The notes under the pieces were generated by a model. It was not told where the DNA came from. It was given only the letters and a program-made list of their open reading frames with translations, and did not search any database. Shown in pieces: positions 15,693-24,575 of a stretch of 64,000 nt of DNA. Position 1 is the first letter of the stretch, and each line of letters starts with the position of its first letter. Made by a program: the position numbers and the translations under genes. This DNA comes from Elusimicrobia bacterium GWB2_63_22 (lineage in GTDB: Bacteria > Elusimicrobiota > Elusimicrobia > Elusimicrobiales > UBA9959), in NCBI GenBank assembly GCA_001799735.1, contig MGUA01000020.1:7572-71571 (forward strand), written 5' to 3'.

Positions 15693-17789
15693 TCAGGCCC
15701 TCTCGGCGCAGAAGACGCTCCATTTGCCGAGCGGCACCGTCCTGGTCAGGCGCCAGCCGGCCGACCGCAGGTCGTTCTCCAGGGTTTCCCGCGCGCACTC
15801 CATCCAACTCCCGGTCAGTTCCCAGCCGGGGCCGAATTCAGGATAGCCCAGGCCGCTGTCGATAATGAATAATTTAGCGCCAAAACCGGCCGAGCCCAGC
15901 AGGCGCCTGAGCAGGCCGACCCGCCCGGCCGCCGGCAGGGCGCCGAGCACCTGCGAAACCACGATATCCCGGAAATGGCCGCCTTTAAGGGCACCGGCCG
16001 CGGCCGCCGGCAGGGCGGGCCTGTCCGCGTAAAACCTGTCCCGGGCCGGCGGGGTCGGGAAAAAGCCGAATTTTTCTTCTACCAGCAGTTCCCGCGAAAA
16101 GTCGCAGCCGGAAAGCCGGGCCGGGTCGGAGGAGGCCGCCCCGCAGACGAGCAGCGAGGGGGAACGCAGCCGTTCGCCTGCTGCCAGGCGCAGCACCCTG
16201 TCGGCCGTGGCGCCGTCCACCCTCTCCCAGGCCAGGCGCGCCTCGCAGAACCCCGCGTAGCGCGCCGCGAAGGCCCGCCTCTCGCGGCCTCGCTCCAGCC
16301 CGGCCAACTCCCCTATCAGCCAGGCCCGGCGTTCCCTGAAAGTGTTCACGTCCAGCCCCGACCAGTCCCCGTCGTCCTGGAACGCGTCCGTCTCGGCCGC
16401 GGCCGCCGCCATGCCTTTGTCCGCCCGGGCCAGCCTGTTCACCCGGCGGCAGAGCGCCACCCCGGGAAACTCGCCGGCGTGGCCCCGCGCGATATGGCGG
16501 AACAGGAAGCCGAAATACTTATCCGCGAAGACGATGTTGGCGGCCAGCGACACTTCCCGGGCCAGCGCGCAGGCGCGCTTCAGCCCGGCCGCGCCGAGCG
16601 ACGGCACGCTGAGAACGTAATAGGGGTCCAGCTCCTGGAACTTAATGCCCAGCCGCGCGGCCGCCTTGCCCAGCGGCGTGCCCGGGTAGACGCGCAGGCG
16701 GTGGAAGAAGAGCCCGGCGTTGACCGAAAGGCCCCAGTCGAAGTTGGCCAGGCAGTTCTTATAGGTGTCGCCCGGCAGGCCTATGATGAAGCTGAGCACC
16801 ACCTTGGCCCGCGGGGCCGCGGCCGCGAGCAGGCCGGTCTTGCGCCGGAGCTCGCCGAAATCCATCCGCCTGTTGATCAGCCGGCAGGTCTCGGGGAAGA
16901 CGCTCTGCACGCCCACGCCGAGAATGAAGGCCCTGTCGTTGAGGAGCGGGATCCTCCGCTCGTCCAGGTTGCGGAGGTCCATCTGTATCTCCACGTTGAT
17001 CCCGCGCCGGGACACCTCCCCGCCCAGCAGCCGCAGCAGCTGCGGCATGGCGGAGTTCTGGCAGAGGTCGGGGTCTATAAGAAAAAGCGTGCGCAGCTCG
17101 GGAAAATCGCTCAGGATGCGGGCCAGTTCGGCCCTGGCCCGCCGGATGCCGAATTCACGGTAATTCCTGGTGATGGCGCAGTAGAGGCAGGACCCGCGGC
17201 AGCCGCGCGAGTTCTCGAAAGGGATGCGCGGGTAGCCCGCCCACTTGAAGAGGCCGCCCAGGTAGGGCGAGGGCACGGTTGAAAGGTCTTTGACGGACTC
17301 GCCGGGTGGATTGACGGCGACGCGCCCGCCTTCGGCGTAGGAAAGGCCCCTGACCCCGGCCAGGTCTCCCCGGCCCAGCAGCGCCCTGAGAACCGCCACG
17401 AAGGCCAGCTCCCCCTCCCCGGCTACGGCGTAGTCCACAGCGCCTCCGGAGAAGATCTCGCCGGCCGGCACCGAACCGGCCAGCGGGCCGCCGAAGATTA
17501 TTTTAGCGCCGCAAAGTTTTTTTACGCCCTGCGCCGCCTTCTTGGTCAGCGCCAGCCCGCCGTAGACAGTAAAGCCGGCCAGGTCCGGCTTCAGCGCCGC
17601 CACGCGCGCCGGAGCCTCCTCCGCGCCTACCCAGGGCTCCAGGATGGTTATCTCCACGCGCCCGCGCAGGAAAGGATCGCGCAGGGCGCAGGCCTTCAGC
17701 AGGCCCGCGGCCAGCGGCAGCAGCCCGTCCGCGTGCAGCGGCGGCACCAGCACCACCCTGTACTTGTCCCGGCGGGCGGCGGCCTTCAC
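15693..17789 (-). CDS. B12-binding radical SAM protein fused to a C-terminal methyltransferase-like domain
   Basis: 698 aa. N-terminal B12-binding-like region, then NSRGCRGSCLYC. The C-terminal ~180 aa (FRDIVVSQVLGALP...KLFIIDSG...) resemble the C-terminal half of a class I SAM methyltransferase fold; that assignment is weak. GTG start, with a GTGA overlap with the upstream stop. Confidence 0.75.
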   Translation of the reverse strand: MKAAARRDKYRVVLVPPLHADGLLPLAAGLLKACALRDPFLRGRVEITILEPWVGAEEAPARVAALKPDLAGFTVYGGLALTKKAAQGVKKLCGAKIIFGGPLAGSVPAGEIFSGGAVDYAVAGEGELAFVAVLRALLGRGDLAGVRGLSYAEGGRVAVNPPGESVKDLSTVPSPYLGGLFKWAGYPRIPFENSRGCRGSCLYCAITRNYREFGIRRARAELARILSDFPELRTLFLIDPDLCQNSAMPQLLRLLGGEVSRRGINVEIQMDLRNLDERRIPLLNDRAFILGVGVQSVFPETCRLINRRMDFGELRRKTGLLAAAAPRAKVVLSFIIGLPGDTYKNCLANFDWGLSVNAGLFFHRLRVYPGTPLGKAAARLGIKFQELDPYYVLSVPSLGAAGLKRACALAREVSLAANIVFADKYFGFLFRHIARGHAGEFPGVALCRRVNRLARADKGMAAAAAETDAFQDDGDWSGLDVNTFRERRAWLIGELAGLERGRERRAFAARYAGFCEARLAWERVDGATADRVLRLAAGERLRSPSLLVCGAASSDPARLSGCDFSRELLVEEKFGFFPTPPARDRFYADRPALPAAAAGALKGGHFRDIVVSQVLGALPAAGRVGLLRRLLGSAGFGAKLFIIDSGLGYPEFGPGWELTGSWMECARETLENDLRSAGWRLTRTVPLGKWSVFCAERA

Positions 17790-18969: not shown

Positions 18970-19302
18970 CTAGCACCAGCCGCCGCGGGCGTGCGAACCG
19001 TGGCTGCCGTGCGAACCGTGGCTGCCGTGCGAACCATGGCTGCCGTGCGAGGCGTGCGAACCGTGGCTGCCGTGCGAGCCGTGGCTGCCGTGGCTCTGGT
19101 GGCTGACGTGCGAGGTCGGGTCGGCCGGCGGGTAGAAGTAGTTCTGGTGGATGGTCTGCGCGCTCGCCTGGTCCACCATCGCCGCGCCGAGTATGCCCAG
19201 CGCGAGGCCGGCCTTCACTATGTCGGCGTCAAGCATCTTCCCCTCTTCGCTGTTGAGGAAGAGCTTTATATTCTTTTTTACTCCGGGTTTTTTCTTTTTC
19301 AT
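18970..19302 (-). CDS. His-Xaa-Ser repeat peptide (HxsA-like precursor candidate), 110 aa
   Basis: ORF-track entry 18970..19317 begins at a TTG. Five codons in there is an ATG (19302) preceded by AAGGAG with a 6-nt spacer. Product: MKKKKPGVKKNIKLFLNSEEGKMLDADIVKAGLALGILGAAMVDQASAQTIHQNYFYPPADPTS, then HVS-HQS-(HGS)4-HAS-(HGS)6, then HARGGWC. Confidence 0.8.
   Translation of the reverse strand: MKKKKPGVKKNIKLFLNSEEGKMLDADIVKAGLALGILGAAMVDQASAQTIHQNYFYPPADPTSHVSHQSHGSHGSHGSHGSHASHGSHGSHGSHGSHGSHGSHARGGWC
18994..19110 (-). repeat. Coding tandem repeat: 13 x 9 nt, organised as ~18-nt units gtgcgaaccgtggctgcc, encoding His-Xaa-Ser
   Basis: Direct reading shows gtgcgaaccgtggctgcc repeated with minor variants from ~18991 to ~19110 on the plus strand. 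On the minus strand it is in frame with the peptide CDS. Confidence 0.85.
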
Positions 19303-19313
19303 GGCCGGCTCCT

Positions 19314-20381
19314 TCAATCCTTACCTAAGGCCTTCCTGGCGTTTTTATTCACGTCTTCTATTATTTTCTGCTCTTCTTTCTTGCGGGCCTCTTCGAGGCG
19401 TTTCTTTTTCTCGGGGCTCATATTCTGTTCGTGCGTCGCCTCCGTCTGGGCGAAAGTGCCGGCGATCTTGTCGAGTATGAGCGAGCAGACCGAACCGGAC
19501 TTGGTGGAGAAAACTCCGCACTCCGTCATGTACTTCTCGGGGCAGGCGGAGATGTTGTTGTCCCGGAGCGAGAGGTAAAGCCTGTTGTTGTCCATGCAGT
19601 CCTGGGTCCTGCAGTTGCGGCTGTCGGCGGGGAACGCCTCGCGGCAGCGGCTCTTGTCGCGGGCGGGCGCCATGTCGCAGATATAGGAGAAGCCTTTGGC
19701 CACCTCGCGGCAGAATTCCGGCGGCACCTTGGCGCCCTCCACGCTGTCCCCCGCGAGATACTTGCGGCAGACCGACTCGCCGTTGACGTTGAACCGGCCG
19801 GCGGCGTAAGCGTAGAAGAGCACGCGGCTGGCGGGGTCCACGCACTGGTAATGCGGGCTCCAGAAATATTTATCCTTCTTGTTGAGGGACCCGGGCAGGA
19901 AGTTGCACATGTTCAGGTCGCCGTAGGCCACGGCGTTGCAGGAGAAGAACTGGGCCAGCAGGCTGTAGAGGGCGTCGTTCTCTTCCTTGGTGAAGACGTC
20001 CGGGCCGAAAGTGGCGTTGCCCCAGGCCTTGCCGTGGGAGGAGAGGATGCCGTTGAGGGTTTTGCCGGTGTAGCCTACCGGGGCGCGGGCGAAGTCCGCG
20101 TTGATGGTGGGCAGCGGGCCGGCCCCGGCCATTTCGGCCGGCGCCTTGAAAACCGAAGAGGGCGGGGCCTTTATCGGGGCAGAGGGCCGCGTTTCCTGCG
20201 ACGGCTGCTGGGCCGCGTAGGCGGTGGCCTCGGCCGGCAGCGGTATGCCCGCGGGGGCCTCGGCGACGGGCGTAGCCTGGCCCGCCGGCAGGGCGGGAAC
20301 GGGGCTGCGCCGCTGCATGTACTGCAGGAAAAGCACCAGGGCCAGCAGCCCGACAATAGCGATCACCACTGATTTTTTCAT
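19314..20381 (-). CDS. Membrane-anchored or exported Cys-rich protein (12 Cys) with Lys/Glu-rich C-terminal tail
   Basis: ORF-track entry 19314..20489, trimmed to Met37 (MKKSVVIAIVGLLALVLFL, a signal/anchor sequence). That ATG forms an ATGA overlap with the stop of the HxsD-like gene (20378..20381). A Pro/Ala-rich linker is followed by a ~220-aa domain with 12 Cys. No family recognised. Confidence 0.65.
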   Translation of the reverse strand: MKKSVVIAIVGLLALVLFLQYMQRRSPVPALPAGQATPVAEAPAGIPLPAEATAYAAQQPSQETRPSAPIKAPPSSVFKAPAEMAGAGPLPTINADFARAPVGYTGKTLNGILSSHGKAWGNATFGPDVFTKEENDALYSLLAQFFSCNAVAYGDLNMCNFLPGSLNKKDKYFWSPHYQCVDPASRVLFYAYAAGRFNVNGESVCRKYLAGDSVEGAKVPPEFCREVAKGFSYICDMAPARDKSRCREAFPADSRNCRTQDCMDNNRLYLSLRDNNISACPEKYMTECGVFSTKSGSVCSLILDKIAGTFAQTEATHEQNMSPEKKKRLEEARKKEEQKIIEDVNKNARKALGKD

Positions 20382-20695
20382 TTGCTCCCCCGTAAGCGCG
20401 GCTTGTTTTCGCCGCAGGCCGACAGCAGCGCCTTGGTCACTATCATGCCGGCCAGTTTTGAATTCTTTTTGGCAAGGTCGATACGGCACTGCTGGTTGAG
20501 CGCCTCGTTGGCGAACTCGCCGGCCAGCCGGTCCAGCGCCGCGCCCCCGGACAGCCGCGCGACCAGAACGCCTTTGCCGGGCGAGACTTTTACGCCGCAG
20601 CGCCCGGCGAAGACGTAGGCCGCCAGCTCGACGGCCTCTTTAGAATAGACCGCCGAGTCAAAAACCAGTTCTTTAGCGTCAGTCTGCTTTTTCAT
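20378..20695 (-). CDS. HxsD-like small protein (copy 1)
   Basis: 105 aa. Its size, position next to an HxsB-like rSAM gene (ATGA overlap 20692..20695), and the segment LAGEFANEALNQQCRIDL resemble the LLNDYxLRE-type signature that I recall for the HxsD family. Not verified by HMM. Confidence 0.55.
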   Translation of the reverse strand: MKKQTDAKELVFDSAVYSKEAVELAAYVFAGRCGVKVSPGKGVLVARLSGGAALDRLAGEFANEALNQQCRIDLAKKNSKLAGMIVTKALLSACGENKPRLRGSK

Positions 20696-22146
20696 TTTTT
20701 TGCCACCCAGCTCTCCAGCACCTTTTTGTCGCGGGCGTTCCCCAGCCTTTTAAAAATAGCGGCGAAGACGCCCTTGAACAGGCTGCAGCGGCCGTTGGAG
20801 CGCATATTGCCCCACAGCGAGCCCTGCGCCTCGTAGTTGTACACGGGGCAGACGCCGCAATAGGGCTTATAGGCGCAGCGCGAGCATTCGGGCTGGGCCT
20901 CGAGATTGGAGGAGACCACGCAGGCGCGGGCGGCCGGCGAGGCGAGGACCTTGCGCAGGCTGTCCTTGAACACGTTGCCGACGCGGAAAATGTCGTCGCC
21001 TTCCCAGCCCACCATGCGGCCCTCGTCGCAGGTGAAGAGGTCGCCGTTGTAGTTGTAGGCGATCTGGCCTATGGCCGCGCCGCAGGGGCAGCGCGCGTCC
21101 AGGTAGCCGGGCTCCGTGGCGTTCACTATCTTCTCCAGCATCATGGCGGCGGTCTTTTCGCGCATGACCGTGCCGCGGCGGTTAAGGGCGAGGATGTAGT
21201 CCAGGCAGCGGCCGTAAAATTCCTGGAACTCTTCCGGGGTATAGCCGATCTTGTCCCAGAGGCCGCGGGCGTAGCCGATGGGGGCCAGCGGCCGCACGAA
21301 GATGTCTTCCAGCCCCAGCGCCGCGTACTCTTCTATGATCTCCTTCCAGCGGGGCAGGGACTGGCGGGACACGGTGAGCAACGCGCCGGGTTTGAAGACG
21401 CGGTACTGCTGCGACTGGCGCGCGTGTTTCTCCTGGAAATATTTTATCCAGCGCACCGTGGCGGCGTGGGAGTTGCCGCCGGCGAAGATCCGGTTCTTGT
21501 TATGCAGGTCCGCCGGGCCGTCGAGAGAGGTGCAGATGGAGACCTCATTCTCGAGGAGGAAACGGGCCTTCTCCTCCGTCATCAGGGTAAAATTGGAGAC
21601 CAGCGCCAGCTTGAGTTCCTTGCCGGTGGCGGCGGCCTTTTCGCGGGCGCGCTTCACGGCGGCCTTCAGCACGTCCCAGTTCAGCAGCGGCTCCCCGCCC
21701 TGGAACTCTATGGTTATCAGGGGATTGGGAGAGGTGAAAGCGAAATCCACGCTGGCCAGCGCGGTCCTGCGGTCCATGTCCGTCTTTTTTGCGCCCTCGC
21801 CGGCGGCGCTGGACTGGCAGTAGAGGCATTTATGGTTGCACCTGAGGGTCAGCACCAGTATGTGCAGGCCCGGCCCCTGGTCCAGGTGCGCGTTCAGGGT
21901 GCGCCATTTAGCGGCCAGCCCTTCAAAATCCATGCTCTCCCGGACGAAGCCCGCGGCGGCGAGCCGCTTGAAGAGGGGGTCTTTTTTGGTTATGCCGCCG
22001 GCCATGACCCGCGCGAAATCCTTCTCGCCCAGCAGGGCGTGACAGCCGGCGTCGTTGGTCAGCAGGCGGCCGCCGGCCACCCGCTCCCAGCGGGCCAGGG
22101 GCGTCCTGGCGGACTTTTTATTTTTTACGGGGCTTTTTGGCGCCAT
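20692..22146 (-). CDS. Radical SAM / SPASM-type maturase, HxsB-like
   Basis: 484 aa with CNHKCLYC, IEFQGGEPLL, and a C-terminal Cys block (CPCGAA..., CSRCAYKPYCGVCPVYN, CSLFKG) typical of SPASM auxiliary clusters. Paralog of 539..1930. Confidence 0.8.
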   Translation of the reverse strand: MAPKSPVKNKKSARTPLARWERVAGGRLLTNDAGCHALLGEKDFARVMAGGITKKDPLFKRLAAAGFVRESMDFEGLAAKWRTLNAHLDQGPGLHILVLTLRCNHKCLYCQSSAAGEGAKKTDMDRRTALASVDFAFTSPNPLITIEFQGGEPLLNWDVLKAAVKRAREKAAATGKELKLALVSNFTLMTEEKARFLLENEVSICTSLDGPADLHNKNRIFAGGNSHAATVRWIKYFQEKHARQSQQYRVFKPGALLTVSRQSLPRWKEIIEEYAALGLEDIFVRPLAPIGYARGLWDKIGYTPEEFQEFYGRCLDYILALNRRGTVMREKTAAMMLEKIVNATEPGYLDARCPCGAAIGQIAYNYNGDLFTCDEGRMVGWEGDDIFRVGNVFKDSLRKVLASPAARACVVSSNLEAQPECSRCAYKPYCGVCPVYNYEAQGSLWGNMRSNGRCSLFKGVFAAIFKRLGNARDKKVLESWVAKK

Positions 22147-22612: not shown

Positions 22613-23398
22613 TCAGATTATACGGCAGCAGACCATGGTGCCGCCCCAGTCCTCGCCGAGCACTATGTAGCGGCCGACCCCGGTGGAAGTCTGGTTCAGG
22701 GGCAGGAAGCCCCAGACGCGGGCCACGCCGTCGCCCATATAGCCCATCACGCGGGCCCCCGCCGGGCAGAACGCCTGGGGCCCTATGGTGTACTGCACCC
22801 TGGAGCAGACGTTGCGGATATAGCCGGTGCCGGGGGTCATGATGATGTCGCCGGTCACCGAGATATTGCCGGAGACGCTGAGGCGCTGGCTGGGGAAGGA
22901 GGTGGCTATGCCCACGTTGCCGCCCTGGGTAATGGTCATCTGGGGCGAGGTGATGCGCTGGGTACCGGCCTGGGGCAGGCCGAAGACCCAGTTATTGCTG
23001 GAGTCTATGCCCATGGCCTTTACCACGTTGCCCTGCCGGGTCATCGCGATATAGGTAAGGGTCTGGCCGGAAGCAGGGCGCGTGACGCCGAAGGTGCCGT
23101 AGGACGCCGTGTCGGCATTAGCGCTGCCGTCCGTTATCTGCGTGGCCCCGTGCACGTGCAGTTTGCTGCCGGGCCCGGCGATGTTGATGCCCACGTTGCC
23201 GCCGTCCCTGGCCAGCAGGGTCTGGTTGGTGGTCAGCAGGCTGACATAGCCGCCGTAAGGGGCCGGATAATAAGTGGTAAGGGTTAAAGTCTCGGAGCCG
23301 ATAAAGCCCGGATGCCAGGCCAGCAGAAAGAAAGCAAGCAGAACCGAGATCTGCCTGCGGTTGAAGTTGAGTTTTAAGGATATTTCCGTGGTTTCCAT
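22613..23398 (-). CDS. Membrane-anchored or secreted protein with tail-fibre-like GNVGI repeats and a Cys-containing C-terminal domain
   Basis: ORF-track entry 22613..23434, trimmed to Met13 (METTEISL...), which is preceded by GGGGGAGG. It has a hydrophobic anchor (ISVLLAFFLLAW), TLTLTTYYPAPYGGY, two GGNVGI(N/A)...L.V.G motifs, and 4 Cys in the last 70 aa. Confidence 0.6.
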   Translation of the reverse strand: METTEISLKLNFNRRQISVLLAFFLLAWHPGFIGSETLTLTTYYPAPYGGYVSLLTTNQTLLARDGGNVGINIAGPGSKLHVHGATQITDGSANADTASYGTFGVTRPASGQTLTYIAMTRQGNVVKAMGIDSSNNWVFGLPQAGTQRITSPQMTITQGGNVGIATSFPSQRLSVSGNISVTGDIIMTPGTGYIRNVCSRVQYTIGPQAFCPAGARVMGYMGDGVARVWGFLPLNQTSTGVGRYIVLGEDWGGTMVCCRII

Positions 23399-23463
23399 AG
23401 AACCTCCCCCACTGGGACCGTCCCAAAGGCGCAAAACAGCGCCGCACCCAAATGCGCTGCTAT

Positions 23464-23518
23464 AGTCTAGCAGAAAATATTAATATTTTCAACGGGAAGT
23501 TAAGTATATGTATATACT
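23464..23518 (-). promoter_or_regulatory. Candidate promoter plus two AT-only palindromes upstream of the Hxs-type operon
   Basis: On the minus strand: TTGAAA (23492..23487), 17 nt, then TAGACT (23469..23464). A perfect 18-bp palindrome GAAAATATTAATATTTTC (23473..23490) overlaps the -35 and spacer. A second near-palindrome AGTATAT-gt-ATATACT lies at 23503..23518. Both are striking in a high-GC background. Confidence 0.35.
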
Positions 23519-23907
23519 CAAAGGAGGACCACGGTAAAAGGGGTTTTTGACTTTTCCAGCAGGAAAGCCCGGGCTTCGCCGGCCACATCGGCAAAATCCT
23601 CCAGGTCTTTGGGGGAGGAGGCGAGAAAAGAGGCGGAATTGCTTATTACCAGAGCGTAGCCGCCTGCCGGCAGCTCTTCGTGCAGGGACCGGAGGCAGTC
23701 CAGAAGAGCGTCCCAGTTGCGGCCGAAATAGGCGGGAAATTTGAAACTGTCGGCGAGCGCCTCCATAAGTTCGGCCTTGGCGGGGACCTTTGCCCCGTCT
23801 ATCCAGGCTGTAAAATAAACCGGCGGAGGGAACATTTTATTGATCCCCTCCGCCGTCATGCCGCGGCCCTTAAGGTCCAGGAAAAGTCCTTGTTCCCCGG
23901 GGCCCAT
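23518..23907 (-). CDS. Barstar-family ribonuclease inhibitor
   Basis: 129 aa with ...ELMEALADSFKFPAYFGRNWDALLDCL..., matching the barstar signature (F-P-x-Y-[FY]-G-x-N-x-D-A-L-x-D-C-L). It lies immediately downstream of the RNase gene. Confidence 0.8.
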   Translation of the reverse strand: MGPGEQGLFLDLKGRGMTAEGINKMFPPPVYFTAWIDGAKVPAKAELMEALADSFKFPAYFGRNWDALLDCLRSLHEELPAGGYALVISNSASFLASSPKDLEDFADVAGEARAFLLEKSKTPFTVVLL

Positions 23908-23911
23908 CGGC

Positions 23912-24463
23912 TCAGTAAACTACTTCGAGCAGTATGAAATGCGCGTAATGGTCGGGCGTGTAATAGATCTTCTGGCCGCCGCCGATTATAACGCGCTCGG
24001 AACCGCGGGCGCTCAGGTCGGGCGCCACCTGATAGGTGGTGCCGCCTATCACTACGGTGTGCGGGGCGTTGCCGGTGAGCAGCGTGTACTCTTTGTAGAA
24101 GCCGGCGGGCTGCGCGGGCAGTTTGCCTTCCTTGTTCTTGAAGGTGGTGCCGTCCTGCGAGTAGGGCAGGGGCTTGCCGTTATAAACATCCGAAACGAGC
24201 TTCATGATGGCCTTGATGCGGGCCTGGTCCTTGATGACGGGGGTGAAGTCCTTGCCGGGCTGCGGGGCGAGGCCGGCGGCCTTTTCCGGGGCGGCTACCT
24301 CGGCGGGGACGGGGAGCTCTACCAGGTTGGTATAGGACGAATTATCCAGCAGGTCGCCGAGCGCGGCGGATTTAAGTTCCTGCGCGCCGGCATAAGAAGC
24401 TATCGAAGTGAAAGAGAGGGCGGCTACCGCGAAAACATTTAACCAGAAGTTTTTCTTAAGCAT
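23912..24463 (-). CDS. Secreted barnase / RNase Sa-type (microbial N1/T1 family) ribonuclease
   Basis: ORF-track entry 23912..24484. The likely start is Met8 (MLKKNFWLNVFAVAALSFTSIASYAGA signal peptide), preceded by AAGGA. The C-terminal domain reads ...DGTTFKNKEGKLP...FYKEYTL...RGSERVIIGGG.KIYYTPDHYAHF, with the catalytic-type E, R and H context of barnase-like RNases. Confidence 0.8.
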   Translation of the reverse strand: MLKKNFWLNVFAVAALSFTSIASYAGAQELKSAALGDLLDNSSYTNLVELPVPAEVAAPEKAAGLAPQPGKDFTPVIKDQARIKAIMKLVSDVYNGKPLPYSQDGTTFKNKEGKLPAQPAGFYKEYTLLTGNAPHTVVIGGTTYQVAPDLSARGSERVIIGGGQKIYYTPDHYAHFILLEVVY

Positions 24464-24575
24464 GTTGACGTCCTTTATCCGCATTTTTAACGACAGCGTT
24501 ACAGTTATAGTTTAACTATACTGGCAAACCTTGCCGAGAGCAATAAGACCCAGGCCCGCCTAGGTCTTTAGGCCC

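Follow-up and report, generated by a model that had tools for sequence, protein, structure and literature searches.

What does a Cys-rich, membrane-anchored protein do in an operon that also encodes radical S-adenosylmethionine (SAM) enzymes and a His-Gly-Ser repeat peptide? The question is raised by a gene (P0001) in a stretch of 64,000 nucleotides (nt) from Elusimicrobia bacterium GWB2_63_22 (GenBank assembly GCA_001799735.1, contig MGUA01000020.1, positions 7,572 to 71,571 of the forward strand); this whole stretch is called the window here, and positions are counted from its first letter unless a locus of another genome is named. The gene lies between an HxsD-like gene and hxsA4, the gene of the repeat peptide. 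We find that it is a real gene of an undescribed protein family, which is a frequent component of HxsA4 loci. In our judgement there is about an even chance that its product serves as a membrane-tethered periplasmic docking partner of matured HxsA4, i.e. as an accessory envelope subunit of an Elusimicrobiota variant of the HXS system.

The protein family and its linkage to hxsA4

On the minus strand the reading frame runs from an ATG at 20381 to a TGA at 19314-19316 (355 codons). The ATG shares bases with the TGA of the upstream HxsD-like gene of 105 amino acids (aa) (AAATGA, 20378-20381; an ATGA overlap) and closely follows a purine-rich GGGGGAG. At the other end, the spacer of 11 nt between the stop codon and the hxsA4 ATG (19302) reads AGGAGCCGGCC, with the hxsA4 ribosome-binding site AGGAG located at the stop codon. 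A longer open reading frame (ORF) of 391 aa starting with GTG was rejected, since M1-K2-K3 are invariant among close homologs and kept in at least 69 of the 80 family members over which conservation and Cys counts were taken. This bears out the start codon that had been chosen in a preliminary description of the sequence, the ATG overlapping the upstream stop. Compared with a 95%-identical relative, the ratio of nonsynonymous to synonymous substitution rates (dN/dS) is 0.105 at a dS of 0.22, close to the 0.08 found for hxsB; therefore this is a functional gene under purifying selection.

The preliminary description had recognised no family, and indeed neither Pfam, NCBIfam, PADLOC nor PHROG gave a match. 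A word-indexed search returned 14 close relatives, labelled hypothetical or Elusimicrobiota; extending the alignment by word-indexed searches with two alignments (A1 and A2) gained only five sequences, and a locus search with A1 found only six close loci. When 1.84 billion representatives were searched exhaustively with phmmer, 78 clusters (at 50% identity) were obtained, nearly all of 300-420 aa and with the same layout. The family is undescribed, and its roughly 78 clusters are at present labelled 'hypothetical'.

We then determined the distribution of the family in a sample of 401 genomes of the phylum Elusimicrobiota, using a broad family profile. Matches were found in 41 of 46 genomes of the window's own GTDB family (f1), in 20 of 48 and 3 of 10 genomes of its sister families f8 and f6, and in the only genome of a fourth family (f12, 1/1), and there was no match in the remaining GTDB families of the sample, including the two largest (0/118 and 0/89). 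HxsA4 is present in 85 genomes of the sample. The Cys-rich family and HxsA4 occur together in 64 of the 66 genomes that carry the former, and among the 316 genomes that lack HxsA4 no more than 2 contain a member of the family.

Gene adjacency is stronger evidence than co-occurrence. Among the copies read in the window's GTDB family, 35 of 42 are separated from a same-strand hxsA4 gene by no more than 300 nt (as was the copy in 18 of the first 20 loci), mostly upstream, once downstream, and in two genomes with a copy on each side. Outside this family, 11 of 24 positive genomes carry a very divergent homolog at most 3 kilobases (kb) from hxsA4 in a different gene arrangement; the linkage has therefore outlasted rearrangement. 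The family is thus a frequent component of HxsA4 loci, and in the sampled genomes it occurs only in lineages that carry HxsA4. HxsA4-type loci are described by NF038313 and its companion models, but for this component there is no model in NCBIfam, Pfam, PADLOC or PHROG.

A few loci deserve separate mention. In two genomes of the window's genus (L055 2310-4678 and L056 2397-4775), two divergent Cys-rich paralogs flank a single hxsA4 (copy, hxsA4, copy). In a sister-family genome (L027 6871-7815), the slot just upstream of hxsA4 is occupied by a different protein of 314 aa with a signal peptide and 10 Cys; as a candidate homolog it was rejected, because despite a similar C...CP...C...YC pattern no homology could be detected (hhalign, 1.5%). 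Some HxsA4 peptides of sister families carry four Cys at their C-terminus, which reads HCRGGWCCPRC(F) (L029 7038-7517, L031 6840-7328), and no Cys-rich partner is found within 6 kb of them.

Architecture, export and disulfides

The preliminary description had divided the protein into an N-terminal anchor, a Pro/Ala-rich linker, a domain with 12 Cys and a Lys/Glu-rich C-terminal helix, a division that hydropathy, the AlphaFold model and the Cys positions reproduce (Table 1). Residues 4-22 are hydrophobic (Kyte-Doolittle 2.3) and helical in the AlphaFold model, and this anchor layout is common to the family (median hydrophobic stretch 16 residues). The linker ranges from 27 to 74 residues across the family; within it, the G-V/I-x-L-P motif stands out by its conservation (G45 in 72/80, L48 in 65/80 and P49 in 74/80 members). 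The C-terminal tail is 51% charged (family median 46%), with N345 in 62/80 and a basic residue at position 349 in 70/80 members.

The full-length AlphaFold model is mediocre (predicted local distance difference test score, pLDDT, 65.8). Residues 92-322, modelled with a 21-row alignment, give a confident structure of about twelve helices (pLDDT 82.7, predicted template modelling score 0.82). A Foldseek search with the AlphaFold model, which the preliminary description had proposed, led to no well-known unrelated family: there was no neighbour in the PDB (best E 1.2, template modelling score at most 0.28) or in BFVD (best E 1.1), and the family profile matched no PDB sequence. In terms of the model, this is a domain with no detectable solved-structure neighbour in the searches of PDB and BFVD, and not a proven new fold. 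Some likeness exists to twin CX9C/CHCH-type hairpins, as the domain is all-alpha in the model with repeated C-x10-C spacings (148/159, 224/235/246/257 and 288/299), of which at least 235/246 behaves as a unit. However, the protein has no Pfam CHCH match, the spacing is x10 rather than x9, and a bacterial domain of 230 residues differs from a small mitochondrial intermembrane-space protein; homology is unsupported. Conservation in 80% or more of the family is limited to Cys, Gly, Pro and aromatic residues (W120, Y269, Y310 and others). Because no catalytic-type polar residue is conserved across the family, the protein probably serves in binding or as a scaffold, and an enzymatic role is improbable.

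The 12 Cys are residues 148, 159, 180, 205, 224, 235, 246, 257, 262, 280, 288 and 299. This number, taken from one sequence, has to be put into perspective: the family consensus is 14 Cys, and the clade of our protein is short of one pair (103 and 311), which presumably once closed the domain. The number of Cys after the anchor is even in 71 of 80 members (12 or 14 Cys in 67/80), and losses go in pairs. Both Cys of the pair 103/311 are present in 69 members, neither in 9 and only one in 2; for the pair 235/246 the corresponding numbers are 57, 19 and 4; and the pairs 280/288, 205/224 and 257/262 show the same joint loss. A shortened family copy of 283 aa with 8 Cys (L044 2263-3114; G214:C7), which is not beside hxsA4 and is possibly decaying, is missing the pairs 205/224, 235/246 and 257/262. 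Our protein contains no CxxC or CxxxC motif (the smallest Cys spacing is 5) and no Pfam metal-binding domain. Pairwise loss of Cys fits structural disulfides, not metal clusters; as each loss may be one clade-level event, this argument rests on several pairs rather than on statistics. In addition, distant homologs have exchanged anchor and linker for classical cleavable signal peptides (L024, L025, L032, P0068 and P0071), with cleavage sites such as MKKTAFFVLISLVATGVFA/Q, ...LALPAPAAQA/Q and ...ISFQTFGA/E. From four independent lines, namely the signal peptides of the homologs, the even Cys counts, the paired Cys loss and the missing CxxC, we strongly infer a tethered Cys-rich domain that lies in the periplasm and is disulfide-bonded, with six disulfides predicted here and seven in most relatives. 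The pairs predicted here are 205-224, 235-246, 257-262 and 280-288, with Cys 148, 159, 180 and 299 forming the other two. The exported, disulfide-bonded domain of the preliminary description thus gains support from the family as a whole.

These data also bear on the idea that the protein stays in the cytoplasm, either as a metal-binding or Fe-S accessory of the radical SAM enzymes or as a second, thioether-forming radical SAM substrate. Twelve Cys in a cluster rich in radical SAM/SPASM enzymes would suit such a role, the best named match of the enzyme downstream of hxsA4 is PapB, a ranthipeptide maturase, and the charges flanking the anchor are ambiguous. Yet homologs bear cleavable Sec signal peptides, Cys are lost two at a time and not as cluster-binding sets (and there is no CxxC/CxxxC), and the PapB match reaches only 89 bits against a cut-off of 340. 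Tested as a precursor of a ribosomally synthesized and post-translationally modified peptide (RiPP), the protein, with its 355 aa, its signal-anchor and a helical fold of 230 residues modelled with confidence, does not have the form of a short peptide of leader and core. We regard this cytoplasmic role as very improbable.

Alternatively, the domain might assist the processing or folding of HxsA4 in the periplasm, acting transiently (as a chaperone, a helper in leader removal or a thiol-disulfide partner of the Cys in RGGWC) rather than as a stable tether. In Escherichia coli, the non-canonical N-terminal cleavage of HxsA requires other Hxs proteins, and the protease is not known (PMC13128918). 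Moreover, the HxsA4 peptides of the loci compared end in either RGGWC or HGSY, and those of our protein's clade end in a single Cys. All 26 RGGWC-type loci in the partner tree retain Cys246, none being without both Cys235 and Cys246, whereas in 8 of 10 GSY-type loci the partner is without Cys235/246 (L013, L014, L017, L018, L022, L023, L043 and L049). These counts are real, but as evidence for coupling between the peptide C-terminus and Cys235/246 they were discarded, as the eight loci form one clade in the partner tree and thus represent one event. The processing role is further opposed by the lack of a conserved His/Asp/Ser/Glu catalytic set and of a CxxC redox motif, and no peptidase or thioredoxin fold was found with Pfam and Foldseek; on balance we consider it unlikely.

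Anchoring of HxsA4 and the role of the Cys-rich protein

In E. coli, the hxsD-B-C-A operon confers broad defence against phages by blocking the entry of their DNA (Li et al., Nat Commun 2026, PMC13128918). Its HxsA has 214 aa; the signal peptide, the five basic HxS repeats and the peptidoglycan-binding domain that make it up are each required, and HxsB, HxsC and HxsD are needed for the non-canonical N-terminal cleavage and the +8 Da modification of HxsA (PMC13128918). Our literature search for HxsA4 found no paper. The HxsA4 of the window consists of a conserved Lys-rich leader, a hydrophobic segment, an ASA/Q site, the repeats and a C-terminal RGGWC. Since it has the hydrophobic segment and the ASA/Q site but no anchoring domain, and since the PG_binding_1 domain of HxsA is required for defence, HxsA4 would need a partner.

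The preliminary description had offered two explanations for the position of the Cys-rich gene, namely a partner of the peptide such as a receptor, scaffold, carrier or immunity protein, or a non-repeat part of longer HxsA proteins encoded here as a separate gene. For the second, we compared the protein with a canonical HxsA from an annotated hxsD-B-C-A operon of an Aeromonas plasmid (P0093). This HxsA has 192 aa with a signal peptide, HRS/HSS repeats and no Cys, and its residues 134-187 are a PG_binding_1 domain (PF01471, 4e-10). Canonical HxsA proteins are thus indeed longer than 110 aa, as the preliminary description supposed (192 aa in Aeromonas, 214 aa in E. coli). The alignment itself speaks against a split HxsA: BLASTP against this one canonical sequence gave only chance-level matches of 28 residues, and hhalign of the family profile against the same sequence a probability of 0.9%. 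Our protein has no PF01471 match even at E ≤ 1 and no H-x-S repeat in its 355 residues (such repeats are encoded by the adjacent hxsA4, 18970-19302), and at E ≤ 0.01 it matches no NCBIfam model, including those for HxsA3 and HxsA4, which the neighbouring peptide does match. As a matter of homology, a detached non-repeat part of HxsA is thus refuted, that part being a Cys-free PG_binding_1 domain without similarity to our protein. What stands is the more general idea of an exported partner of the HxS peptide, which is strengthened by an adjacency that recurs in different arrangements. Like canonical HxsA (TIGR03979), the Cys-rich protein is encoded in a radical SAM operon with HxsB and HxsD and is predicted to be exported, and it may supply the anchoring that PG_binding_1 gives HxsA in cis. 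Unlike HxsA, it is Cys-rich, lacks HxS repeats and PG_binding_1, would be membrane-tethered instead of wall-bound and has its own gene next to that of a short HxsA4. By analogy, a functional substitution of the peptidoglycan anchor by a membrane tether is possible.

In the arrangement that we propose, the N-terminal segment would anchor the protein in the inner membrane, with the flexible linker of about 65 residues, the helical domain of 230 residues and the charged tail on the periplasmic side. Cytoplasmic maturation of HxsA4 would be the task of HxsB, HxsD and the other radical SAM enzymes, and the peptide would then be exported via its own Sec-type signal. The Cys-rich domain would bind the His-Gly-Ser repeat peptide of about 65 residues and keep it at the membrane on the tether, which would take the place of the peptidoglycan-binding domain that is present in cis in canonical HxsA and missing from HxsA4.

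Several observations weigh against such a docking partner. About a quarter of the HxsA4-positive genomes (21/85) have no detectable homolog, and therefore the Cys-rich protein is not essential to every HxsA4 system; likewise, several HxsA4 loci lack a homolog within 6 kb. As neither family occurs outside a set of related lineages, ancestry confounds their co-occurrence at the genome level, which alone is weak evidence. Seven copies do not adjoin hxsA4, five of them being second copies in genomes whose other copy does adjoin it and the remaining two belonging to one genus, in which about 30 kb of the contig separate them from hxsA4. The net charge of the domain spans -15 to +16 across the family, a spread that a simple conserved binding surface of electrostatic nature would hardly allow. 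The charge around the anchor is balanced (N-terminal flank +2, the next 12 residues net about +2), and the positive-inside rule is accordingly undecided. Searches of the genome, which is 95% complete, gave neither DsbB nor VKOR; in favour of disulfide formation, on its contig C18 (L036 1375-2465) a membrane-anchored DsbA-like thioredoxin with a CPAC site is directly followed by a membrane protein of the MauE/DoxX family, plausibly the oxidising, disulfide-forming pair of the lineage. Finally, antiphage activity has been demonstrated for the E. coli system only.

The membrane-anchored product of a gene just before that of a radical-SAM-modified, exported peptide might also be an immunity protein, which would shield the membrane of the producer from matured HxsA4 as in bacteriocin or RiPP clusters. 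Its rapid divergence would suit a co-evolving pair: identity to relatives of the same family is 22-35% for the Cys-rich protein, the fastest-diverging member of the module, but 49-69% for HxsB and 50-82% for HxsA4. The high conservation of HxsA4, however, fits poorly with an arms race with its own immunity protein, the operon is without the exporter or peptidase typical of bacteriocin clusters, and the one relative of the system characterised so far acts as an antiphage effector in the periplasm and not as a toxin (PMC13128918). Self-protection is thus quite improbable in our view.

A further relationship concerns the N-terminus. Related Elusimicrobiota genomes encode proteins of about 120 aa whose N-termini are homologous to residues 1-55 of our protein, a stretch of MKKx, transmembrane (TM) segment, basic patch and G-V-x-L-P (hhalign 97%, E 4e-11). 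These mini proteins share with our protein the N-module of MKKW, TM segment, basic patch and GVxLP. They differ from it in that they contain no Cys and lack the whole Cys-rich domain; their Lys/Glu/Gln-rich C-terminal tails are alike in composition only, and in the loci read they do not stand beside hxsA4. In five of five cases read, the mini-protein gene lies directly 3' of a gene with a TYYPAPYGGY motif (pairs at L067 1188-3633, L069 1672-3685, L068 1246-2068 and L070 about 1775-2475; one genome has two tandem pairs), and the gene pair appears to be undescribed. The one TYYPAPYGGY gene compared with the first gene of the operon in the window is homologous to it (42% identity, E 1e-26). In the genome of the window, the TYYPAPYGGY gene and the N-module gene occur once each, and both single copies belong to this operon; the single weak match considered as an N-module paralog was read as antisense to a SecG-like ORF and dismissed as spurious. 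Furthermore, a gene with the TYYPAP motif heads every HxsA4 locus with enough flanking sequence in which the motif scan found one. From the homology of the N-module and the consistent pairing with TYYPAPYGGY genes, the Cys-rich protein looks like a mini anchor protein into which a Cys-rich domain has been inserted, as far as the sequences tell.

Could the protein then be an envelope partner of the TYYPAPYGGY fibre-like protein, as its membrane base or in its assembly, with hxsA4 as shared operon cargo only? The N-module would argue for it, as it is common to Cys-less mini proteins after TYYPAPYGGY genes in loci without visible Hxs genes, and so would the single copy of each gene in this operon and the motif genes at the head of HxsA4 loci. 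But it is the Cys-rich domain and not the N-module that tracks hxsA4: homologs with signal peptides and without the N-module (L024, L025) still lie beside hxsA4, and the mini proteins have no Cys-rich domain at all. We consider an exclusive partnership with the fibre-like protein rather unlikely. Instead, the N-module appears to be tied to the fibre-like protein and the Cys-rich domain to HxsA4. The product of the first operon gene is likely the partner of the N-module, and within the docking arrangement the N-proximal TM segment and GVxLP would probably couple the Cys-rich protein to it. Extending this further, one might speculate that the HxsA4 operon encodes a three-part envelope device of the TYYPAPYGGY protein, the tethered Cys-rich protein, whose fold would be one not seen before, and the modified His-Gly-Ser peptide captured by the Cys-rich domain. 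The tether would position a peptide 'gate' at the inner membrane and block the entry of phage DNA there, unlike the wall-anchored HXS system of E. coli; we regard this as a tentative and doubtful model.

The operon and its place among HXS systems

Taken as an HXS-type radical SAM peptide system, the locus contains HxsB and an HxS-repeat substrate that both exceed their curated cut-offs, whereas HxsD is not above its own (37 and 43 versus 50 bits); relatives of the second HxsD-like gene match PF27806 (HxsD). No HxsC model is among the best 25 matches of the radical SAM gene downstream of hxsA4. The gene order is D-B-D-X-A-rSAM (X being the Cys-rich gene and rSAM a radical SAM gene), and not the canonical D-B-C-A, and the same order is seen again in Elusimicrobiota metagenome-assembled genomes. 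The sole promoter-like site on the minus strand lies at 23492-23464, 5' of the first operon gene. Directly upstream of the operon, at 23518-24484 on the minus strand, we noted a secreted barnase-type ribonuclease (PF00545, 190 aa) and a barstar inhibitor (PF01337, 129 aa), a pair also present in the related locus L001. On a Methylobacter plasmid (NZ_CP091425.1; L034 3920-7286), hxsB and hxsC are followed by a gene annotated as thermonuclease family in the expected place of hxsA, which may be another variant effector for Hxs maturases.

Table 1. Genes of the operon and segments of the Cys-rich protein, with positions in the window
Feature	Positions	Strand	Evidence
First operon gene: anchored TLTLTTYYPAPYGGY-motif (TYYPAPYGGY) protein with tail-fibre-like region	22613..23434	minus	motif, weak PHROG tail-fibre matches
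HxsD-like gene 1, 153 aa	22118..22579	minus	TIGR03976 43 bits, below cut-off 50
hxsB, radical SAM/SPASM maturase	20692..22146	minus	TIGR03978 473 bits, cut-off 370
HxsD-like gene 2, 105 aa	20378..20695	minus	TIGR03976 37 bits, NF038315 28 bits, both below cut-off
Cys-rich anchored protein gene (P0001), 355 aa	19314..20381 (including stop codon)	minus	ORF and translation
Residues 1-25: MKK, 19-residue hydrophobic stretch and RR; predicted uncleaved signal-anchor, first half of N-module	20307..20381	minus	hydropathy, AlphaFold helix 3-25
Residues 26-91: disordered Pro/Ala-rich linker (66 residues)	20109..20306	minus	pLDDT <50, 46% P+A
Residues 45-49, GIPLP: conserved G-V/I-x-L-P motif within otherwise variable linker	20235..20249	minus	
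Residues 92-322: all-alpha Cys-rich domain, 12 Cys	19416..20108	minus	AlphaFold model, Cys columns
Residues 323-355: Lys/Glu-rich C-terminal helix ending NKNARKALGKD	19317..19415	minus	helix 323-351
hxsA4, 110-aa His-Gly-Ser repeat peptide	18970..19302	minus	NF038313 67 bits, cut-off 55
Radical SAM/SPASM gene 3' of hxsA4, 362 aa	17786..18874	minus	PF04055
B12-radical SAM enzyme	15693..17789	minus	B12-binding radical SAM NCBIfam models, all far below cut-off

In 2026 HXS was found to act against phages by halting DNA entry from the periplasm, and it bears on how an HXS effector is positioned and acts that the Elusimicrobiota variant splits the repeat peptide from any anchoring domain. To this it adds a dedicated protein, predicted to be exported and disulfide-rich, that has no detectable structural relative. 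It also connects HXS with envelope proteins that resemble tail fibres, a connection not seen in the proteobacterial systems. If the Cys-rich protein is indeed a docking partner of HxsA4, the two would form a tractable two-component effector for binding and structural studies, with a new protein family and fold to annotate.

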